From Candidatus Hodarchaeota archaeon (lineage in GTDB: Archaea > Asgardarchaeota > Heimdallarchaeia > Hodarchaeales > Hodarchaeaceae), in the NCBI GenBank assembly GCA_016840035.1, contig JAEOTC010000219.1, positions 1 to 13,221 on the forward strand: DNA of 13,221 bases, given 5' to 3'. Below the pieces are notes generated by a model, which was given only the letters and a program-made list of their open reading frames with translations, was not told the origin of the DNA and did no database searches. Each line of letters starts with the position of its first letter. Position 1 is the stretch's first letter. Position numbers and translations under genes: made by a program. Shown here piece by piece: positions 2,299 to 12,901 of this stretch.

Positions 2299-4782
2299 AT
2301 GAATAAAAGACTTTTTTGCGTAGGAGTCGTGACTATCGGCCTACTACTTCTTGGTAGTCTTTCTATTCCAGTTTCCGCTCAGGATGACGAAGGCCCCAAC
2401 ATGGGTGACTTTGAAGGTATAATAGATATCTTTTCTGATATTTCTTTGTCAAATAACTGGATAGTAGGACCATCAATGGGTTCAGTATCCGATCTCACAA
2501 ATACTAACCTACGGTACAATCTCACCAGCGCCATAACTCCAGTTGATCAATTTTTCAATGCTGGATTCTTTATGGGTGGTGATGGAAGTAATGGTCCGCA
2601 ACCAGAATTTGCATTATCTGGAACTTTTGAAGGATCAGAGCTTTTTGTTAAGATTGTTAACGATCAATGGTCAATAAATGACCCTACACGTCGTTTATTG
2701 GATTGGCAAGCAGTTTTAACACTTGGGCAAGAAATTGAATTATCAATAAATTATCCCCCAGAATTAGCTGACCAAGGTGTTCCAGTTGATCTGTTACCAA
2801 CGAGTGTTGTCATGCCAGCTGGATCAGGAACTCCTCCATTCCCAGTTGTAAGTTCTACAACAAACTTCACTGACTTTGAGGATTTAAATGATTTAGTCTC
2901 TTCGTATGGATTCGATGGGTTACCCTTTGTTGCACCATCTATCTTCTTTGTGGAAGATGTAAGTGATGCATTTAGTTATTGGGATAGTGAAGTCGATCTA
3001 GACAAGTTATTCCATATTGACGAAGATTCATCAGAGAATATTACTGTTACAGCAACACCTATTCTGACACCCGATTTGGAATTAAATCTGACTGTTCAAT
3101 TCTCTAACGCTACAGCCAGTCATGGTGACATAAGAATTCTAGGTGTTTGGGATTCAGTTTCTGGATTCTTAAAACACTTTAGTGTTCATGGAATTGGTGA
3201 TATGGATGATAGCGGTGTGGTTGAAAATTGGGAAGAATTCTTCTTTGCCTTTGATTTACTCGGTACCCCAACTCAAGCATCAACTCCAATTCGTGTTGGG
3301 GATTCAGGAGAATACGTCATCAACGTTGATATGGGATTAGATGAACTTAATTTAGTGAATGATACTGAAGAACAGTTCGTAGAGGATCTCCTAACTGCAG
3401 TTATTGAAGCAGTTGAGGAACTTGATGGCAGACAATTGTTAAACTATACCGTTGATGAAATGGATGGACTATATTACCATCTTGAAGGTTATATGTTGGA
3501 TTTCAATAAATTCCTTGGTGAACGATTAGGATTCCTCTTTGGTGGTGAATCTCCACAAGACCCTCTCCCCTCTGTTGATGCTTATTATCATCCTTTCGAT
3601 GATAATATGGACGAACGACGCACTTCAGACTTTGCAATCAATCTCTTTGATGCTCAGATGTATCAAAACACAACAAGTTTCATAGAAAGATTTGATGGAA
3701 GTCACTGGGGATACTGGAACGAATGGGACGAATGGGTTGAAGAATATCATCCATTACAAGCCGAAGACAATCAGACCTTACGCATCAATGACTGGATTCG
3801 AGGAATAATGAACGCTCAGGTTTTCGAGAAAGAAGATTGGGACATGAACTATGATCAATCTAAAACACTCGAGGAAAATCTAGCAACTCCCAACGCAGCT
3901 TTGGTTTATGATGGACCAGTAGATTATGTCGAAGTTGTTGAGCAAGGCTGGGATTATAACGAAAGTAGCGGTATGTATGATATACCTGTGAATTGGACTT
4001 ACACCGATATCCTAATCAACGATAGCACATATCAAAATTTCGTGCCTGGTGTCGATTACGTCGCATTCTTCGAAATTGAAGCAATGCCAGAGAGTGGATT
4101 TACCTCCTACCTCACCAAGAATAATTTCATAAATATGTTTATGTTTGGTGGAAATAATGGTGGCGATGGAATGGATGCTGGTATGGGTGCTGCAGATGAA
4201 CCCATGCCCCCTGAAGAAGGGCAAGGCTTCAGATTACCAGTTAGTACTGATGTAATTATACCCATGCCTGCTCGAACCCCCGATTGGGATCAAGTTGGTG
4301 GAGCAATTATCCTAATGGAAGCCTATGTTGATCAAGTAGCTGATGTAATCACAGATCCAGATTTCCTAGCATTCCTTATGAATATGCCAATGGAAGATGT
4401 CGGTGACTCCCTCACAATTCACTCATTTAGCCTTGATTTGGATTATATCAACAATGCAACTCAATTTGGTGCAGCAGCTTATACTGAACTTGACATGACC
4501 CAAGTTGATAACGATACTGGAGAAGAGGTAATTGTTACAACAGATGGTTATGTCTATACAGAGGAACACTATTACTGGAATCCAAACGGTGCTTTCGAGT
4601 GGATGAGTTCTTACACATCCTATTACCTTGAGGTTGTTGTAGAAGACTATCCTTCTGAAGAAACTACTACTGACGAACCAACAACTACTCCAACCGATGT
4701 TGAAATCAGCCCTGGTTTCGAGGTTATTTTCGTTCTTGGAAGTTTAATTGCCTTACCTATCTTCCTTCGGAAGAGAAGGTAA
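2299..4782 (+). CDS. Secreted acidic cell-surface glycoprotein with PGF-CTERM-like (archaeosortase-type) C-terminal anchor
   Basis: Sec signal peptide (MNKR + hydrophobic stretch, VSA|QDD). Very D/E-rich and Lys-poor. 14 N-x-S/T sequons by manual count. Thr/Pro linker (PSEETTTDEPTTTPT), then SPGFE, one TM helix and RKRR. Confidence 0.85.
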   Translation: MNKRLFCVGVVTIGLLLLGSLSIPVSAQDDEGPNMGDFEGIIDIFSDISLSNNWIVGPSMGSVSDLTNTNLRYNLTSAITPVDQFFNAGFFMGGDGSNGPQPEFALSGTFEGSELFVKIVNDQWSINDPTRRLLDWQAVLTLGQEIELSINYPPELADQGVPVDLLPTSVVMPAGSGTPPFPVVSSTTNFTDFEDLNDLVSSYGFDGLPFVAPSIFFVEDVSDAFSYWDSEVDLDKLFHIDEDSSENITVTATPILTPDLELNLTVQFSNATASHGDIRILGVWDSVSGFLKHFSVHGIGDMDDSGVVENWEEFFFAFDLLGTPTQASTPIRVGDSGEYVINVDMGLDELNLVNDTEEQFVEDLLTAVIEAVEELDGRQLLNYTVDEMDGLYYHLEGYMLDFNKFLGERLGFLFGGESPQDPLPSVDAYYHPFDDNMDERRTSDFAINLFDAQMYQNTTSFIERFDGSHWGYWNEWDEWVEEYHPLQAEDNQTLRINDWIRGIMNAQVFEKEDWDMNYDQSKTLEENLATPNAALVYDGPVDYVEVVEQGWDYNESSGMYDIPVNWTYTDILINDSTYQNFVPGVDYVAFFEIEAMPESGFTSYLTKNNFINMFMFGGNNGGDGMDAGMGAADEPMPPEEGQGFRLPVSTDVIIPMPARTPDWDQVGGAIILMEAYVDQVADVITDPDFLAFLMNMPMEDVGDSLTIHSFSLDLDYINNATQFGAAAYTELDMTQVDNDTGEEVIVTTDGYVYTEEHYYWNPNGAFEWMSSYTSYYLEVVVEDYPSEETTTDEPTTTPTDVEISPGFEVIFVLGSLIALPIFLRKRR

Positions 4783-4809: not shown

Positions 4810-4931
4810 AGTATTATCTATTCCTGATTGCTTTTTCTGTCTTAAGAAAGGTAGTAATGCCAATATTTTCTCAAGCATTGATTAATTATAATCCGAAGTA
4901 TCTTATTGTAGATAAGATTGGAAGGACAAAG

Positions 4932-6188
4932 ATGGCTGATTCACCTTTATCTAATCTCCAAAATAAGATTAATCAATATAAAACAGAATTATTGATTATT
5001 TTATTCGCTGCCATCCCAACTAGTCTTTTTATTTTAATCGCATGGATTGAGGGGGACTTTTCAGTTCTTGATCATAGTTATTGGATCGGAATCATCTTCT
5101 ATAATCTGGTTCTGGTTTTTGGAATCTGGTTTGCACATACCAAGCGAGTTTTGAAGATATCAGAGCGGATTCTTTATGTAGGAATTGTGATCACTCTCAT
5201 TCTATATACAGCTTTTCGAGATATCGTTTTTACTGGGGATATAACACAAGGAGTTATTGAGGGAGCACGAGTGCTTTGGGAAGGAAAAAACCCTTATGTA
5301 GTAGCCGAGATTCCCCATGCAGTACCCAATATCCCTGGGGAATTCCGTCTTGGAACATATGCATATTTACCTGTTGATTTGATTTCATACTCAATTTTTT
5401 TGGGAGGATTAAAGTTACTTTTCTCTCCTTTTACTACCTTATCGCCCTTTCCCCTTCCAGGAATTAATGAAATGGGAATCCTAGTAACCAATCTCGGATT
5501 GATGTGTGTCTCAATTTATTTATTGAAAGATATTCTTGAAATCAACTGGAAAAAAGCTGCTGTCCTTGGATCATTTCTCTTTTTAATTCTCATTTGGAAT
5601 AATGTCTGTCTAGCACAGACGTTTTTCATTGCAGGATGGTATTTCCATAAGCGAAAACAAACAAATTGGGTGGTATTCTTCTGGTCGTTGAGCATGCTAT
5701 CAAAATACTTTGCAGGAATATTCATTGTTGCCTATCTGGTTGAATATCTTAGAAAACAAGAGTGGCTGGAAGTTATTGTGAAAAGTATGATAGCTGGTGT
5801 CTTAAGTATTCTAGTAAGTCTTCCATTTGGTATTCTAGAAGTTTTAAATTCTACAGTATTTTTCTATAATACAGAGGAACGGATTTTAGACGGATCGTTC
5901 GGTGGATCTATATTTTCAGAAGCAATACTATATTTCAATCTTGAGGATATAATTTGGTTATTCACAGTAGTGGGATTTAGTATAATCTTAATTGTTGCAA
6001 TTTTAATTAAAGACCTCTTCCAAAGACTTGTAATCACAAGCTGTTTAGCTTTGTTCGTCATTACTGGCATTTCAGCACAATTTCTTACCTTAATTATCTT
6101 GATTTTAGTACTTGCGGGTCAAATTCTTCTTTTTGACGGGCAGAAACAATATAGAGCGGCTGATGAGTACACTCAAACCAGTTTGTAA
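4932..6188 (+). CDS. Multi-pass GT-C-fold glycosyltransferase (GT87/DUF2029-like)
   Basis: Roughly 10 or more hydrophobic segments. Loop GDITQGVIEGARVLWEGKNPY...YAYLP matches the D...A..L..G.NPY...Y.Y.P pattern of GT87-like proteins; later WNN and LSKYF motifs. Start at ATG 4932 (MADS) preferred over 4857 because of the purine-rich GGAAGGA upstream. Confidence 0.65.
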   Translation: MADSPLSNLQNKINQYKTELLIILFAAIPTSLFILIAWIEGDFSVLDHSYWIGIIFYNLVLVFGIWFAHTKRVLKISERILYVGIVITLILYTAFRDIVFTGDITQGVIEGARVLWEGKNPYVVAEIPHAVPNIPGEFRLGTYAYLPVDLISYSIFLGGLKLLFSPFTTLSPFPLPGINEMGILVTNLGLMCVSIYLLKDILEINWKKAAVLGSFLFLILIWNNVCLAQTFFIAGWYFHKRKQTNWVVFFWSLSMLSKYFAGIFIVAYLVEYLRKQEWLEVIVKSMIAGVLSILVSLPFGILEVLNSTVFFYNTEERILDGSFGGSIFSEAILYFNLEDIIWLFTVVGFSIILIVAILIKDLFQRLVITSCLALFVITGISAQFLTLIILILVLAGQILLFDGQKQYRAADEYTQTSL

Positions 6189-6196
6189 AGAAATGA

Positions 6197-7429
6197 TTAC
6201 TTTTCAAAAAGGTCTGACTGCAACAGCTGTAATAGCTCCGCTAGGGGAAAGTCCGAAATACTTACCTTTCCTGTTCTACCGAGTGATTTTCCTTTATTAT
6301 GACGATTTATTACTTCTAATCGGATTAATCCAATTTTATGGAGTTCCTGCATGTATACCCAGAATTGAGTTTGTTTTCGTGCATTTAATCCATTAGCTTG
6401 ACATATAGACTCATATTTTTGTTTTATGTCAGCAGTTAATACGTACATACTATCAGATTGCCGCCTAAGAATACTAGCGATAGAAAACAAGACGAATTTT
6501 TGATGTAAAGGAAGATCTGTAATTAAGCTCTGTTTGATAGGAAAACTGCTAACTTGTGCTTTTCTCACATGCTCAAATGTTATCTCATTGGATTGTTCAC
6601 CTTCTGCAACTTTACCTGCTCTCCATAAAAGCTCAAGTGCATACCGAGCATCACCAGAAGCATGAGCAACAATAGCGATCTCTTTAATTACTTCATTTGT
6701 ATAAGTTGTAGTATTTAATCCATGTTTTGCCCTAGCTATAAGAATATCATAAAGTTGTGTAGTAGTATATCGATGGAAAACAATCATTCGCTTACTTAAT
6801 GATGAATAAAGAGCAGAATCAAGATAAATGTAGAGATAGGGGCTTCGAGTAATAAAAATCAAAGAAAGAGGAAAATTAAATTCAGTCATGTTTCCTTCAT
6901 TATTCCGAATTAATGCGTAAAGAATATCCTGACCCTTGGTTGTAGAAATTAAATAATCGATTTCGTCCAGACAGAGAAGAAGTTTTTGATTTCTCTCATT
7001 TAAAATTGTACCAATATAAGTAAGCAGCTCAGCTGCACTAAATCCTCTGATTGGAAAGGCAGGTACTAATTGACGAAGAATTGTAGTAAAAAGAATGCTC
7101 CAAGATCTCTGTCTTCGGCAATTGAGATGAAAAAATCGGAAAGAGGAGATATTTTCCCGGATTTTATTTCGACTATACTGCTCTAATGTGTTGCCAAATT
7201 GTTTAACAATTGTAGTTTTCCCCAAACCAACAGAACCCTGAACTACCACATGAGTTCCTAGAGTAGGAGAGGATTTGCTAAGGATAGGTTTGAAGTATTG
7301 AGCAAGAGTTGCCAACTCACCTTCTCGATGTAACAAACATTCGGGAATGAAAGAGGGTTCAAAGACTCCCTCATTTTGAAAAATTCGAGAGGGAAAATCG
7401 AAATTTTCAAATAGTTTATAGTTTGTCAT
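6197..7429 (-). CDS. cdc6: Orc1/Cdc6 family AAA+ ATPase with winged-helix domain (resembles the Orc1-2/Cdc6-2 clade)
   Basis: N-terminal IF.NE.VF.P.FIPE.LLHRE; Walker A GSVGLGKT; LNC; FPIRGFS; Walker B LLLCLDEID; sensor-2 GDARYALELL; winged helix RKQTQFWVYMQEL..IGLI with wing GKSLGRT. Confidence 0.95.
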   Translation of the reverse strand: MTNYKLFENFDFPSRIFQNEGVFEPSFIPECLLHREGELATLAQYFKPILSKSSPTLGTHVVVQGSVGLGKTTIVKQFGNTLEQYSRNKIRENISSFRFFHLNCRRQRSWSILFTTILRQLVPAFPIRGFSAAELLTYIGTILNERNQKLLLCLDEIDYLISTTKGQDILYALIRNNEGNMTEFNFPLSLIFITRSPYLYIYLDSALYSSLSKRMIVFHRYTTTQLYDILIARAKHGLNTTTYTNEVIKEIAIVAHASGDARYALELLWRAGKVAEGEQSNEITFEHVRKAQVSSFPIKQSLITDLPLHQKFVLFSIASILRRQSDSMYVLTADIKQKYESICQANGLNARKQTQFWVYMQELHKIGLIRLEVINRHNKGKSLGRTGKVSISDFPLAELLQLLQSDLFEK

Positions 7430-7978: not shown

Positions 7979-8686
7979 ATGGCACAGGTTACAGAACAGA
8001 AAAAAACTAAAGCTAAAAAAGAAAAAAAGTATTTAATTATTCGATCTTATCCTGAAACGCTCTTTTTCTACCCATCAATGATTGTAGGAATTATAATCTT
8101 CTTCATTCAATTTCTCGCAGAAAGCAGTGACGGCCTCACTCCAGAAGTTCAAGCGCAATGGGGAACATTTTTCTTTGCAGTGTTTGCTTTTAACTTCCTA
8201 GTTGTTGCTTTTGACTTCGGACTTGGAAAAACAGCACTTATTGCAGCAGGATTTATTATTTTAATCCTTGTAGTGGTCTTACTGCAGCAACAAATAGGCG
8301 ATGCCTTTCAAATTACATTGACACCTCCAAACATCACAATGTCAACGGACTTCTACTTGTTTTTTGACCTACTTATGATAGCACACTTTGTCTTGATGTA
8401 TATTTACTCGAGAATTGATTACTGGTTAATTTCTCCCACTGAGATTTACCATCACCGTGGGATCTTGGGAGACGAAAAACGCTTTGGGAATGCCCAACAT
8501 GCTCACATCGAGAAAACAACACCGGACATTTTTGAAAAAATGTTATTCCTAAGTGGGGATATTTTCATTAAACCCGAGACAGATCCACATATTTACCGGA
8601 TATCCAATGTTTTTCGTGTTAACAAGAAGGAAAAAGCGATTCGTGGTATATTATCTTACGTTCCCTCTGAACGTCTAGACGTCTAG
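7979..8686 (+). CDS. 4-TM membrane protein with C-terminal bacterial-PH-like domain
   Basis: AGGAG at 7965-7969. Lys-rich N-terminus and four hydrophobic segments. Soluble tail DYWLISPTEIYHHRGILG...DIFEKMLFLSGDIFI...ISNV fits the Y..T...I....G.L...I..R.L..G.I pattern of bPH domains. Confidence 0.7.
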   Translation: MAQVTEQKKTKAKKEKKYLIIRSYPETLFFYPSMIVGIIIFFIQFLAESSDGLTPEVQAQWGTFFFAVFAFNFLVVAFDFGLGKTALIAAGFIILILVVVLLQQQIGDAFQITLTPPNITMSTDFYLFFDLLMIAHFVLMYIYSRIDYWLISPTEIYHHRGILGDEKRFGNAQHAHIEKTTPDIFEKMLFLSGDIFIKPETDPHIYRISNVFRVNKKEKAIRGILSYVPSERLDV

Positions 8687-8727: not shown

Positions 8728-9942
8728 TCAAGTGCTAGTTTTCTTGATGACGCTACTGTCGGCAATAACTTGATCAGCATCAATTACTACATAAGGTTTT
8801 AAAACCGAGTTGGACCCAATAACAGAATTAGGCCCGATTATAGCACCTAGTTTGTGATATTTTCGTCCTTTGATTTCTTGGGAAGATTTTTGAAGCTCCT
8901 CATCCCTTAAAACGTTCATTGTAGTAACGCCAGATCCGATAAGGACATTTTCACCGATAACACTATCACCGACAAATGATAACCGGCCAATCTTTACATT
9001 AGGTTGAATTACAGAATTCTTTACTTCTACTGAATATCCTATTTTGGAATTCATTCCGATACAGGAATAATTGCGGATTAAACTATTTGTCCCAATATAG
9101 GCATTTTTCCCAATAAAACAAGGGCCGACAATTTTTGCATTGTGATCAATGGTGACTCCCTTCTCAATAAGAACTAAACCTGAAATATGGGCAGAAGTGG
9201 AAATTTTAGCTGATTTATGGATTCGGGCATACTCTAATCCTTTAAATATATCTTGATTAGCTGCTAATAGATCCCACCCATAACCCACATCGATCCATTC
9301 ATCCTGCCACACAGAAGCACAAACGCGTCTTTGTTCTTTCAATAAACGTGCAAGTGCTTTGGTCAATTTTTCTTCTTCGCCTAGGATTTCAAAAAATTCC
9401 CCAGGAAGAATTGATGCACCGGCAAAAATATAATTAGTATCATTATCTTTAGCAGAAGGGCCAGGAGAGATTTTTTTTATAAATCCTCGTTCATCAATAT
9501 TAGCTATACCAAATTCTTGGGATTTACCGACAAGTGTAACCGAAATAGCTCCATCTGCAGCAGTATTGATAAAGGAGTTCAACAGGTGATGATAAAACAT
9601 AGGAGGAGCAACAATATCTCCATAAGCAACAAGAAAGGGTTTATCTTTACTAAAATGCGTCTGTGCTGACAGAATCGCACCTTCAATTCCTTTCCTCTCC
9701 CCTTGATTCACAATTTGAATATTGAGTCCTCGAGACCGATAATCAGCGAATATTTCTTCGAGTTTCTCCCCCTGATGACCAGTAACAATAACAAATTCAT
9801 CTACTCCTGTTTCAAGTAAACCCTCGAGAACATACTCGATTACATATTTTCCATGGATACGCAGCATGGTTTTCGGACAATACTTAGAAAGAGGAAGCAT
9901 TTCCTTCCCAACCCCGCCAGTGAGTACTAGTGCTTTCATCAT
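8728..9942 (-). CDS. Archaeal GlmU-like protein (sugar-phosphate nucleotidyltransferase domain plus left-handed beta-helix) with degenerate catalytic motifs
   Basis: MKALVLTGGVG...P.....PK, YGD, FGI, AG, WIDVGYGWDLL; hexapeptide repeats (IVGPCFIGKNAYIG, SVEVKNSVI, VGDSVIGENVLIGSG, KLGAIIG). Confidence 0.88.
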   Translation of the reverse strand: MMKALVLTGGVGKEMLPLSKYCPKTMLRIHGKYVIEYVLEGLLETGVDEFVIVTGHQGEKLEEIFADYRSRGLNIQIVNQGERKGIEGAILSAQTHFSKDKPFLVAYGDIVAPPMFYHHLLNSFINTAADGAISVTLVGKSQEFGIANIDERGFIKKISPGPSAKDNDTNYIFAGASILPGEFFEILGEEEKLTKALARLLKEQRRVCASVWQDEWIDVGYGWDLLAANQDIFKGLEYARIHKSAKISTSAHISGLVLIEKGVTIDHNAKIVGPCFIGKNAYIGTNSLIRNYSCIGMNSKIGYSVEVKNSVIQPNVKIGRLSFVGDSVIGENVLIGSGVTTMNVLRDEELQKSSQEIKGRKYHKLGAIIGPNSVIGSNSVLKPYVVIDADQVIADSSVIKKTST

Positions 9943-10125
9943 TTACTTTCACTGTGATTAATTGACTTGATTCAGAATTAAGATGTATTAAGAGAGAATA
10001 TTCCTTCTACATCTAGATTTCCCATAGTTAAATTAATGTAGGTCAAAATGATAATTAAGATTGTTCTTTTTAAACTCTTCTCCATCTTTCTCTTTGACTA
10101 AAATAATGCGATGTGGAAGCAATAA

Positions 10126-11781
10126 ATGAGTAGCCATCCAAAACCAGCCATGCTACACTGGGTAGACAAGCTAACAGACGATTTAATCACTCACTGGCCT
10201 GATAACAAAGAATTTCATTGCAATTGTGGGATTTCAGTCTCGGGCAGACAGCATGTCGGTCGATTACGCGGAGAAATTGTATTAACCAATGCAGTAGTCG
10301 AAGAACTGAAACGAAAAGGTTTCTCTGCAACACATTACTTAATTTTATACACCTCAGATCCGTGGAAAGGGAAAGATGCACAGTTAAATGCATTCAAAGA
10401 CACCAAAGAGGCAAAAAAGTACATTAACTGGCGTTTAGTTGATGTTCCTGATCCCACGGGAAAACATGCCTCATGGATTGACTATTATTGGAAAGCATTT
10501 GGAAAACCTCTACCTAAATTTGGAAAAAATGTTCAAATCATTCGTACTCATGAATTCTATCAAACAGAAGAGATGAAAACTACCATTATTGCTTTAATCC
10601 AACAGAAGGATAAAGTACGCACTATACTTAACAAATATCGCGCAGAAAATCCGTTTCCTGAAGATTGGATTCCTTTCAACCCATTATGTAACAAATGTCA
10701 CCGAATTGGGACAACTACTGCACTAGAAGTTGATCTTGAGAAATATAAAATCCGCTATTCATGCTCGGAATGTGAGGATGAAGATTGGTCAGATATGAGA
10801 TTAGGGAAGCTAACCTGGAGACTTGAGTGGTTAGCCATCTGGTATACATTGAATATTCACTTCGAACCTTACGGAAAGGATCATGCTACTCCAGGTGGAT
10901 CACGAGATAGTTGTATTGAAGTTTTAGAAACGGTATTAGACCATCCGGGTCCTTATGGGTTTTGGAATGAATGGGTTGGGTATTCAGAAGGACGAACCGA
11001 TCATGGGGATATGACAAGTTCAGGATTCATCGGATTTACACCAACCACATGGTTAAAATATGCTGAGCCACAAATTTTACGCTACCTGTATTTGAAACCC
11101 CCTCCTAGACGGAGAATCGTATTAGGATTAGACAAATTACCGTCGTATATATCTGAATATGACAAAGCGGAACGGATCTATCATAATATTGAATCGTTTG
11201 ACGATCCATCGGAACTCCACACCATTCGGAGAAGCTACGAAATTGCCCACTTCAATAAAGTTCCGAAATATATTGGATTCCAATTAGATATCAATCATGC
11301 CATTATTCTAGGACAACTAGTTGAAGAAGGGAAAATAGGTACACGGAAAGCGATTGATAAACTTCTCGCCACAGGTATCTTATCGAAAAAGCCTACAGCT
11401 GCGGTGAAAACACATATCCAATCACGTCTTACATTAGCTCGAAATTGGATAAAGGACTGTGCGCCACCACACTTACATATTGATATTCCAGACGAAATTC
11501 CCGCAGGTATCATAGACGATATCGATCCTGATATGCAAATGATAGTGATAGCCTTAGCAGAAACTCTAAAGACAATTTCTTGGAAACAAGAAGAAATCAA
11601 AACAGCCATGATGGATCTAAAAACTGAATTCAAACTTTCTCGTAAGAAAATGACTGCATTCTTTGGTGTATTATATCAAATCTTCTTGGGAACTTCTCGG
11701 GGACCAAGATTTGCACCTTTCATTGCTGCATTAGAACAAGATTGGGTTATTGAGCGTTTATATCAAGTGAAGAACAAGTAA
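10126..11781 (+). CDS. lysS: Class I lysyl-tRNA synthetase
   Basis: HWVD; GISVSGRQHVGR (HIGH equivalent); VPDP; CNKC/CSEC Zn knuckles; GKLTWRLEW; FEPYGKDH..PGGS; DMTSSG (KMSKS equivalent); LRYLY; LY.IFLG..RGPR anticodon-binding domain. Confidence 0.97.
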   Translation: MSSHPKPAMLHWVDKLTDDLITHWPDNKEFHCNCGISVSGRQHVGRLRGEIVLTNAVVEELKRKGFSATHYLILYTSDPWKGKDAQLNAFKDTKEAKKYINWRLVDVPDPTGKHASWIDYYWKAFGKPLPKFGKNVQIIRTHEFYQTEEMKTTIIALIQQKDKVRTILNKYRAENPFPEDWIPFNPLCNKCHRIGTTTALEVDLEKYKIRYSCSECEDEDWSDMRLGKLTWRLEWLAIWYTLNIHFEPYGKDHATPGGSRDSCIEVLETVLDHPGPYGFWNEWVGYSEGRTDHGDMTSSGFIGFTPTTWLKYAEPQILRYLYLKPPPRRRIVLGLDKLPSYISEYDKAERIYHNIESFDDPSELHTIRRSYEIAHFNKVPKYIGFQLDINHAIILGQLVEEGKIGTRKAIDKLLATGILSKKPTAAVKTHIQSRLTLARNWIKDCAPPHLHIDIPDEIPAGIIDDIDPDMQMIVIALAETLKTISWKQEEIKTAMMDLKTEFKLSRKKMTAFFGVLYQIFLGTSRGPRFAPFIAALEQDWVIERLYQVKNK

Positions 11782-12395: not shown

Positions 12396-12496
12396 CTAGA
12401 AGTACCTATGAGATCAGATTGAAATAATGTAATTCGAAGAGGAAAGTTCTTTGATTTTCCTTTAAATCCAGTAGTTGAAAAATGGTTTGAACTTTT

Positions 12497-12901
12497 ATGC
12501 AATTTAGAACTTTTGGTTGGATCGCACGGCAAAATCCACACATTCGCGTGACAGAAACTGAAATCATTGATGATAAACGGTTTATGTTCAGCGGATTACA
12601 AGGAAAGTCAGTAGAAACACCCGTTAATGAACGAAAAGAGTGGTTTAAGAAGGGTGAGCTGTGGCCAACGTTAATTTTAGTAGAAAAAGCATGGGATGAG
12701 GAAACAGGAGCTAGAACAGAGCATTCGTTTGTTCGAATTTTCCGCCATGAGGATGGAGCTATCCTAGATATCCTCGTAACATTAAGTCTTGACACAGCCA
12801 CACTTATTGCACACGAATTTAGTGTCCCCTTATTTAGTGTCACCTGTTCACGAAAAGGAACCCGGGGAACAGCACAACGTATTCATATGGATATTCTATA
12901 A
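12497..12901 (+). CDS. Hypothetical protein (134 aa)
   Basis: Protein-like composition; fills the gap between neighbours and converges on the 12941 gene. No motif recognised. Confidence 0.65.
   Translation: MQFRTFGWIARQNPHIRVTETEIIDDKRFMFSGLQGKSVETPVNERKEWFKKGELWPTLILVEKAWDEETGARTEHSFVRIFRHEDGAILDILVTLSLDTATLIAHEFSVPLFSVTCSRKGTRGTAQRIHMDIL

Follow-up and report, generated by a model that had tools for sequence, protein, structure and literature searches.

The window analysed here, a 13,221-bp contig (JAEOTC010000219.1) from an archaeon of the Hodarchaeales, encodes on its reverse strand a 404-amino-acid GlmU-like protein (hereafter the window protein), which selection has maintained and which is a paralogue of the bifunctional sugar-1-phosphate nucleotidylyltransferase/acetyltransferase of archaea (the ST0452 or archaeal GlmU type). 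Judging from its active-site residues, the protein has very probably lost both canonical GlmU reactions, and we read it with moderate confidence as a paralogue of archaeal GlmU that would bind ligands without catalysis, in a regulatory or scaffolding role, and would resemble GMPPA and KONJAC in its logic. It belongs to a sister clade of GlmU, found in archaea and bacteria, that always lacks the catalytic histidine of the acetyltransferase site, has repeatedly lost the phosphate-binding arginine of the nucleotidyltransferase (NT) site, and keeps both pockets otherwise intact; the association of His loss with Arg loss across this clade is the new observation. To our knowledge, regulatory dead paralogues of this fold, in which an NT domain is followed by a left-handed beta-helix (LbH) domain, have so far been known mainly from eukaryotes (GMPPA, KONJAC and eIF2B gamma/epsilon). 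The host lineage lies close to the eukaryotic stem, and a link to the eukaryotic dead paralogues would matter.

Replaced and retained residues in a conserved frame

The protein has the architecture of the ST0452/TIGR03992 type, a single chain of ~400 amino acids with the NT domain first and the LbH domain second. The Pfam model NTP_transferase (PF00483) covered residues 3-232 at 89 bits and was followed by hexapeptide/LbH repeats. Among NCBIfam models, TIGR03992 (archaeal bifunctional GlmU) scored best, with 269.1 bits against a curated cut-off of 292.1, and TIGR02091 (GlgC) gave 61 bits. The closest solved relative was Sulfolobus tokodaii ST0452 (PDB 2ggo), which HMMER aligned end to end with an E-value of 2.6e-39. 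An AlphaFold2 (AF2) model built on 32 relatives (pLDDT 83, pTM 0.84) matched the same protein at a TM score of ~0.79 and a Z-score of 41, with a root-mean-square deviation (rmsd) of ~3 A over ~365 residues at ~30% identity. Other structural matches were to GMPPB/VTC1 (Z ~38), to 8yre_A (Z 36.2; a chain presumed to be the inactive KONJAC2 of plants) and to ADP-glucose pyrophosphorylase (Z ~30); Foldseek gave a TMq of 0.73 to 7d72_B, a chain taken as GMPPA by its length of 406 residues. With its different arrangement of domains, bacterial GlmU matched less well. Since the orthologues begin with MKAL, the second ATG of the frame (9939) is the likelier start, which would give a protein of 403 amino acids.

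In GlmU, Arg18 and Lys25 bind the phosphates of the nucleoside triphosphate, Gln76 and Gly81 read the uracil, and His363 is the general base of the acetyltransferase; in GlmU and RmlA structures, the PK lysine, the Gln/Gly pair for uracil or thymine, the YGD aspartate and the W.D.G aspartate hold the nucleotide and the metal. An earlier note, made from the letters of the window alone, had described four motif changes in an intact 404-residue frame (GVGKE, GIEGA, ISPGP and RLSF), and alignments to ST0452 and to a canonical GlmU bore them out. In the HMMER alignment to 2ggo, GSGER of ST0452 pairs with GVGKE, IIEKP with ISPGP and HLSY with RLSF; in the alignment to the canonical GlmU of the same genome, GKGTR pairs with GVGKE, GTGHA with GIEGA, EKKP with SPGP and HLSY with RLSF. 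The codons lie where the note had placed them (Glu14, 9903-9901; ISPGP, 9471-9457; RLSF, 8985-8974), and Glu14 occupies the position of Arg18 in E. coli GlmU and Arg13 in ST0452. The motifs said to be retained, PK (K24), YGD (D109) and W.D.G (W216 and D218), are indeed in place.

Relative to canonical Asgard GlmUs, the NT pocket carries Glu for Arg in GxGxR, Ile for the Thr of GTA, Pro-Gly for the Glu-Lys of EKP and Phe for the Asn of NAG, and K24, Q80, the base-reading Gly, D109 and D218 are invariant. The LbH pocket is identical to that of canonical GlmU at R290, E306, K308, N309, S310, L321, S322, GDS, N343 and K364, and its sole exceptions are a fixed change of His to Arg and, in most sequences, a change of Tyr to Phe. 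The earlier description of both active sites as degenerate needs correction for the acetyltransferase site: because the rest of the LbH pocket is fully conserved, it is altered rather than degenerate, and RLSF is found clade-wide. As read from the residues, the pattern is the signature of pockets that would still bind something yet have been stripped of the groups on which the known reactions depend.

A first search returned ~60 homologues at 62-88% identity, whose named sources were labelled Hodarchaeales, Kariarchaeaceae or Heimdallarchaeota. Glutamate stood at the Arg position in 59/59 full-length orthologues (GxG[K/T/R/N]EMLPLS), EKP was absent from all 59 (ISPDP, ILPDP or ILPET instead), and every one of them read GRLS[F/Y]; 121 of the 404 positions were at least 98% conserved. 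Comparison with the three closest orthologues yielded nonsynonymous (dN) and synonymous (dS) distances of 0.074-0.090 and 1.4-2.5, respectively, and a dN/dS ratio of ~0.04-0.05. In the same genome pairs, dN was 0.097-0.103 for the neighbouring lysS and 0.137 for Orc1/Cdc6, both above the value for the GlmU-like gene. Furthermore, Arg320 was encoded by five different codons in different relatives (CGG, CGC, CGA, CGT and AGA), which shows that the residue is kept while its codon turns over. Alignment of orthologues had been proposed in the earlier note as the way to tell fixation under purifying selection from strain-specific decay, in which close orthologues would retain the Arg, the Glu-Lys or the His; none of the 59 does. 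Collectively, these data reveal strong purifying selection and not strain-specific decay.

The window corresponds to one contig (C201) in an Asgard genome of 4.3 Mb that is 87% complete. The earlier note had found no active paralogue in the window and had called the gene divergent from lysS, both of which are true, but a canonical GlmU with GKGTR, EKKP and HLSY intact is encoded on another contig (C186) and scores 461 bits to TIGR03992, over the cut-off. Several shorter sugar-nucleotidyltransferases are also present in this genome. A dead-looking protein of NT-LbH architecture, as its residues portray it, is thus accompanied in one genome by an apparently active GlmU.

A His-less sister clade of archaeal GlmU

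In a maximum-likelihood tree of 68 rows, the canonical GlmUs with HLSY formed one group and everything else formed another, the His-less clade (SH-aLRT 98), which comprised 58 rows and in which the window protein was nested deeply. The clade also takes in bacterial proteins (Nitrospina, SAR324) and archaeal ones with GxGxR and EKP intact. The replacement of His by Arg in RLSF is, as a result, a signature of the clade and not a private lesion of the window protein.

An exhaustive profile search recovered 1,724 cluster representatives at E <= 1e-30, and the best 146 that could be scored were used to relate the two sites. The histidine was present in 82 of these, 81 of which keep both the Arg and the Glu-Lys. 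Among the 64 representatives without it, the Arg was kept in 19, replaced by Lys in 8 and replaced by another residue (E, D, N, A, S, Q, H, T, G or Y) in 37; in other words, the GxGxR arginine was absent from 45/64 His-less but only 1/82 His-bearing representatives, and the EK motif was lost in 31 of the His-less set. These relatives are not independent of one another, and the counts describe a pattern, not a statistic; in a FastTree phylogeny of the 146 representatives, the state of the Arg switches 12 times or more. Members of the His-less clade retain K24, Q80, R290, E306 and K364, and most also have K308 and N343. Together, these observations suggest, at the level of sequence, that catalysis is dispensable across the clade.

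A survey of 251 genomes of the phylum confined strong matches to the window protein (340-790 bits) to its own GTDB family, where they occurred in 15 of the 16 other genomes, two of them partial or interrupted (G136 and G211). The remaining genome, G175 (80% complete), had a weak match only. A second match at E <= 1e-30 was present in all genomes of the family but G175; its identity, that of the canonical GlmU, was checked only in G000. In all other families of the phylum, identity to the window protein was at most 39%. Other families of Heimdallarchaeia nevertheless have their own His-less, Arg-less and EKP-less paralogue (GKGLDL, GKGEEL, GHGKAL or GKGEDL) beside a canonical GlmU, and among other Asgard families, a His-less paralogue carried Glu in one and the original Arg in three, and one showed the canonical copy only.

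A single exclusive clade uniting the Hodarchaeales type with the paralogues of the other Heimdall families was rejected by the approximately unbiased (AU) test (p 3e-58). Because this grouping was chosen with the tree already in view and excluded metagenomic relatives without a known taxonomy, the test speaks only to non-exclusive sisterhood. Since the Hodarchaeales and the other Heimdall types are not exclusive sisters, the degenerate state arose or spread more than once. Two longer fused forms (P0163 and P0164) were considered as functional hints and set aside; their cores are His-bearing and Arg-bearing and have no bearing on the family of the window protein. The His-less clade may represent a widespread, uncharacterised class of pseudoenzymes, and it points to a place in the nucleotide-sugar metabolism of prokaryotes for pseudoenzymes that bind ligands, or else for enzymes re-tooled in an odd way.

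Gene neighbourhood

The features of the gene and its flank are listed in Table 1. A class I lysS (10126-11781, forward strand) is transcribed divergently from the GlmU-like gene, and the intergenic region between them presumably holds both promoters. Within Hodarchaeales-type genomes, the conserved neighbours are the divergent lysS and a convergent gene for a membrane protein of ~235 amino acids, followed by RadA and Orc1/Cdc6. Distant relatives of the Glu type have unrelated neighbours, and their convergent neighbours are not homologous. Gene context was accordingly rejected as a functional clue, the arrangement being limited to Hodarchaeales-type loci. Base composition is even across the window.

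Table 1 Features of the GlmU-like gene and its flank in the 13,221-bp window
Feature	Position	Strand	Basis or remark
Whole gene, 404-aa His-less, Arg-less ST0452/GlmU-like paralogue	8728..9942	-	Open, intact frame; stop codon 8728-8730
N-terminal NT domain, Rossmann-like, residues 1-232	9247..9942	-	Pfam PF00483; AF2 pLDDT ~90 over most of the domain
C-terminal LbH domain, residues 256-404	8731..9177	-	Pfam Hexapep and LbH models; conservation table; AF2
GAA codon of Glu14, at the GxGxR arginine position	9901..9903	-	Alignments; Glu in 59/59 orthologues
Codon of Lys24 (PK lysine), kept and invariant	9871..9873	-	Conservation across relatives
GIEGA (residues 85-89) for GTxxA; Ile86 instead of the sugar-contacting Thr	9676..9690	-	Alignment; conservation table
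ISPGP (residues 158-162) for the sugar-phosphate-binding I-E-K-P	9457..9471	-	Alignment; EKP lost throughout the Hodarchaeales clade (ISPDP, ILPDP, ILPET)
RLSF (residues 320-323) for HLSY; Arg320 in place of the catalytic His	8974..8985	-	Alignment; conservation table
183-bp AT-rich intergenic region shared with lysS	9943..10125	.	Divergent arrangement kept in Hodarchaeales loci

The convergent neighbour (7979-8686, forward strand) encodes 235 amino acids, several stretches of which are hydrophobic and suggest membrane helices; it matches no Pfam or NCBIfam family. It is separated from the GlmU-like gene by a 41-bp gap and sits at this place in every Hodarchaeales-type locus examined, and its rate of evolution is about as low as that of the GlmU-like gene (dN 0.083-0.109). 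Further along the window, open reading frames (ORFs) of 827 amino acids (2299-4782) and 443 amino acids (4857-6188), both on the forward strand, contain no Pfam families. The longer one ends in a weak match to Heimdall-CTERM (21.4 bits against a cut-off of 24), which suggests that it is a sorted surface protein. In the corresponding region of locus L011 lie ORFs of 825 and 418 amino acids, comparable to these two in size and place. On the reverse strand, an XPD/Rad3-type helicase (3-1934; DEAD_2, HBB) runs off the window start, and an Orc1/Cdc6 homologue lies at 6197-7429; with the class I lysS, these are ordinary archaeal housekeeping genes. Two ORFs without a family, of 145 amino acids (12406-12843, reverse strand) and 134 amino acids (12497-12901, forward strand), overlap on opposite strands, and at most one of them is likely to be real.

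In the complete Heimdall genome CP070695, the lysS beside the orthologue is called as a 183-amino-acid piece only (L010 7285-7833). Beyond this piece (L010 3029-7166) lie aIF5B, ribosomal protein S6e, aIF2-gamma and a PIN protein, an adjacency absent from the other loci. The nearness of aIF2-gamma and aIF5B, or of an IF-2B gene, was likewise discarded as a functional clue, as each adjacency is not conserved.

Competing readings and known systems

If the window protein is a non-catalytic paralogue of GlmU, it would fold and oligomerise like ST0452 and bind ligands in one or both pockets without turnover. The ligand of the first pocket would likely be a nucleotide of the uridine or thymidine type, and that of the second an anionic sugar-phosphate or a CoA-like molecule. 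Such a protein could take part in nucleotide-sugar metabolism as a sensor, a regulatory subunit or a scaffold, and its most plausible partner would be the active GlmU of the same genome, on which it might act as GMPPA acts on GMPPB and KONJAC on VTC1. The earlier note had proposed a non-catalytic sensor or regulatory subunit; a non-catalytic role is also the reading that best fits the residues. For a specific tie to eIF2B gamma/epsilon, one of the analogues named in that note, the comparisons below gave no support.

Several points weigh against this interpretation. LbH N-acetyltransferases of the QdtC and WlbB type work without a catalytic base, and loss of the His is by itself no proof of inactivity; moreover, the near-perfect conservation of the remaining acetyltransferase pocket also fits a working active site. 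A Lys or Arg one position before Glu14 in most orthologues could partly substitute for the missing Arg, although one subclade has Thr at that position, which argues against such a substitution by a basic residue. On its sugar-binding side, the NT pocket is hydrophobic, and the ligand, if there is one, is probably not UDP-N-acetylglucosamine (UDP-GlcNAc) itself. Finally, gene context indicates no partner, the only conserved neighbours being lysS and the uncharacterised membrane protein within Hodarchaeales.

The main rival reading, possible though in our judgement unlikely, is that of a re-tooled enzyme, one pocket of which still catalyses with an altered chemistry or substrate. The LbH pocket could carry out base-independent acyl transfer while Arg320 holds an additional anionic group; alternatively, nucleotidyl transfer could rely on Glu14 and metal ions instead of Arg. 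The acetyltransferase pocket, conserved residue by residue apart from the changes of His to Arg and Tyr to Phe, accords with such an enzyme, as do the invariance of Arg320 itself through synonymous codon turnover, the invariance of K24, Q80, D109 and D218, a rate of evolution no higher than an essential enzyme would show and the precedent of the base-less enzymes QdtC and WlbB. In contrast, the Arg14 position is variously E, D, N, K, A, S, Q, H, T, G or Y within the His-less clade and the EK is often lost; one conserved NT catalytic mechanism is therefore hard to reconcile with this variation. In addition, the exchange of the EKP Glu-Lys, the GTA Thr and the NAG Asn for Pro-Gly, Ile and Phe removes the known sugar-phosphate contacts.

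We consider it quite improbable that the protein is an ordinary bifunctional GlmU-type enzyme, as annotated, in which the odd residues are tolerated. The full-length architecture and the good family-level score (TIGR03992, 269 bits) are compatible with that view, as is the annotation of its relatives, which public records call 'sugar phosphate nucleotidyltransferase' or 'bifunctional GlmU'. However, the score does not reach 292, the curated cut-off; four distinct motifs for catalysis or substrate binding have changed at once; and the same genome holds a canonical GlmU with all motifs intact. Under its annotated names, the protein would be counted in Asgard metabolic reconstructions as a second enzyme forming UDP-GlcNAc, which it very probably is not.

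The reading in which the protein would be an archaeal counterpart or forerunner of eIF2B gamma/epsilon, acting on aIF2 in translation initiation, we hold to be very unlikely. It draws on the same two-domain core, which matches eIF2B chains in 7kmf, 6o85, 5b04 and 7l70 (subunit not stated) over ~350 residues at Z ~30-31 and an rmsd of ~3.2 A; on the occurrence of the protein in Heimdallarchaeia; on the presence of aIF2-gamma and aIF5B a few genes away in one relative; and on a phmmer score of 42.4 bits between yeast eIF2B-epsilon and the window protein, compared to less than 42.1 bits with the canonical GlmU. This small edge may merely reflect that neither the window protein nor eIF2B-epsilon rewards catalytic motifs. 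In contrast, a profile of the family gave ST0452 242 bits, GMPPB ~122-133, bacterial GlmU ~100 and eIF2B-epsilon 65 (at about rank 53), and the Pfam model LbH_EIF2B scored 61.8 for the canonical GlmU against 56.4 for the window protein and 50.3 for an orthologue. The structural Z-score to the eIF2B chains was also below the 41 obtained for ST0452 and the ~38 for GMPPB, and level with that for ADP-glucose pyrophosphorylase. The nearest protein-language-model clusters in a protein-atlas look-up were all prokaryotic and GlmU-like, none being eukaryotic; the chain stops at residue 404, immediately past the LbH domain, and lacks a W2/HEAT domain; and the translation-gene neighbours are not conserved. 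Human eIF2B subunits presumably keep the Arg of the glycine-rich motif, in which case Glu14 is not a shared derived trait.

A genome-wide search for the W2 domain gave no match, but control genomes were silent too. Searches aimed at eIF2B-epsilon among longer homologues, one for proteins over 740 amino acids and one, with a truncated profile, for proteins over 614 amino acids at E up to 10, recovered only bacterial NT-LbH fusions, mostly with phosphomannomutase. These bacterial proteins of ~835 amino acids join a GMPP-like NT and LbH part to a phosphomannomutase or phosphoglucomutase part and so unite successive steps, two in number, on the way to GDP-mannose in a single polypeptide. Three genes of the IF-2B family are present in the genome, none of which is linked to the GlmU-like gene. 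In these comparisons of sequence, structure and gene context, no specific link between the window protein and eIF2B gamma/epsilon emerged. It is similarly unlikely that the degenerate NT-LbH paralogue of Heimdallarchaeia would be the archaeal stock of eukaryotic eIF2B gamma/epsilon or GMPPA, already serving as a nucleotide- or sugar-phosphate-sensing subunit; if true, this would overturn the textbook view that eIF2B gamma/epsilon have no archaeal counterpart, these subunits being stated as missing in archaea by reviews (PMC6412873, PMC7531240). A recently decaying, functionless gene copy, to which the loss of multiple catalytic residues might point, is excluded by the intact frame, the same substitutions in 59 orthologues down to 62% identity, the low dN/dS with a dN below that of lysS, and the 121 nearly invariant positions.

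Among known systems, ST0452 and archaeal GlmU (TIGR03992; PDB 2ggo, 5z09 and 5z0a) share with the window protein its length, the NT-LbH architecture, the packing of the domains, K24, Q80, YGD, W.D.G and the pocket of R290, E306, K308, N343 and K364. The window protein differs from them in having Glu for Arg, PGP for EKP, GIE for GTA, FAG for NAG and Arg for the catalytic His, and in its membership of the separate His-less sister clade. QdtC and WlbB resemble it as base-independent N-acetyltransferases with the trimeric LbH acyltransferase fold and no catalytic His; unlike it, they act on nucleotide-linked amino sugars, lack an NT domain and have a different pocket. eIF2B gamma/epsilon are alike in possessing an NT-LbH core without sugar-nucleotide catalysis and in matching the structure over its full length, but the window protein has no W2/HEAT domain, its gene is not consistently linked to those for aIF2 or IF-2B, and its similarity to them is weak (42-65 bits) and not clearly above that of the canonical GlmU. 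GlgC likewise places an NT domain before a non-catalytic LbH domain that serves oligomerisation and allosteric control; its NT site is, however, fully active, and its sequence similarity to the window protein is low.

The closest analogues in logic of the non-catalytic paralogue that we favour are GMPPA, which accompanies GMPPB in animals, and KONJAC, which accompanies VTC1 in plants. GMPPA is catalytically inactive, binds GDP-mannose, the product nucleotide sugar, and inhibits GMPPB (PMC11228364). GMPPA and KONJAC chains were not among the 60 best PDB sequence matches for the window protein, and the canonical GlmU matches GMPPA at 55 bits. Both decayed independently of the window protein in a different branch of the superfamily, and the LbH domain of GMPPA lacks an acetyltransferase ancestry with a conserved pocket. 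Nevertheless, in all these cases, which share the same fold, a degenerate paralogue is kept beside an active or apparently active one.

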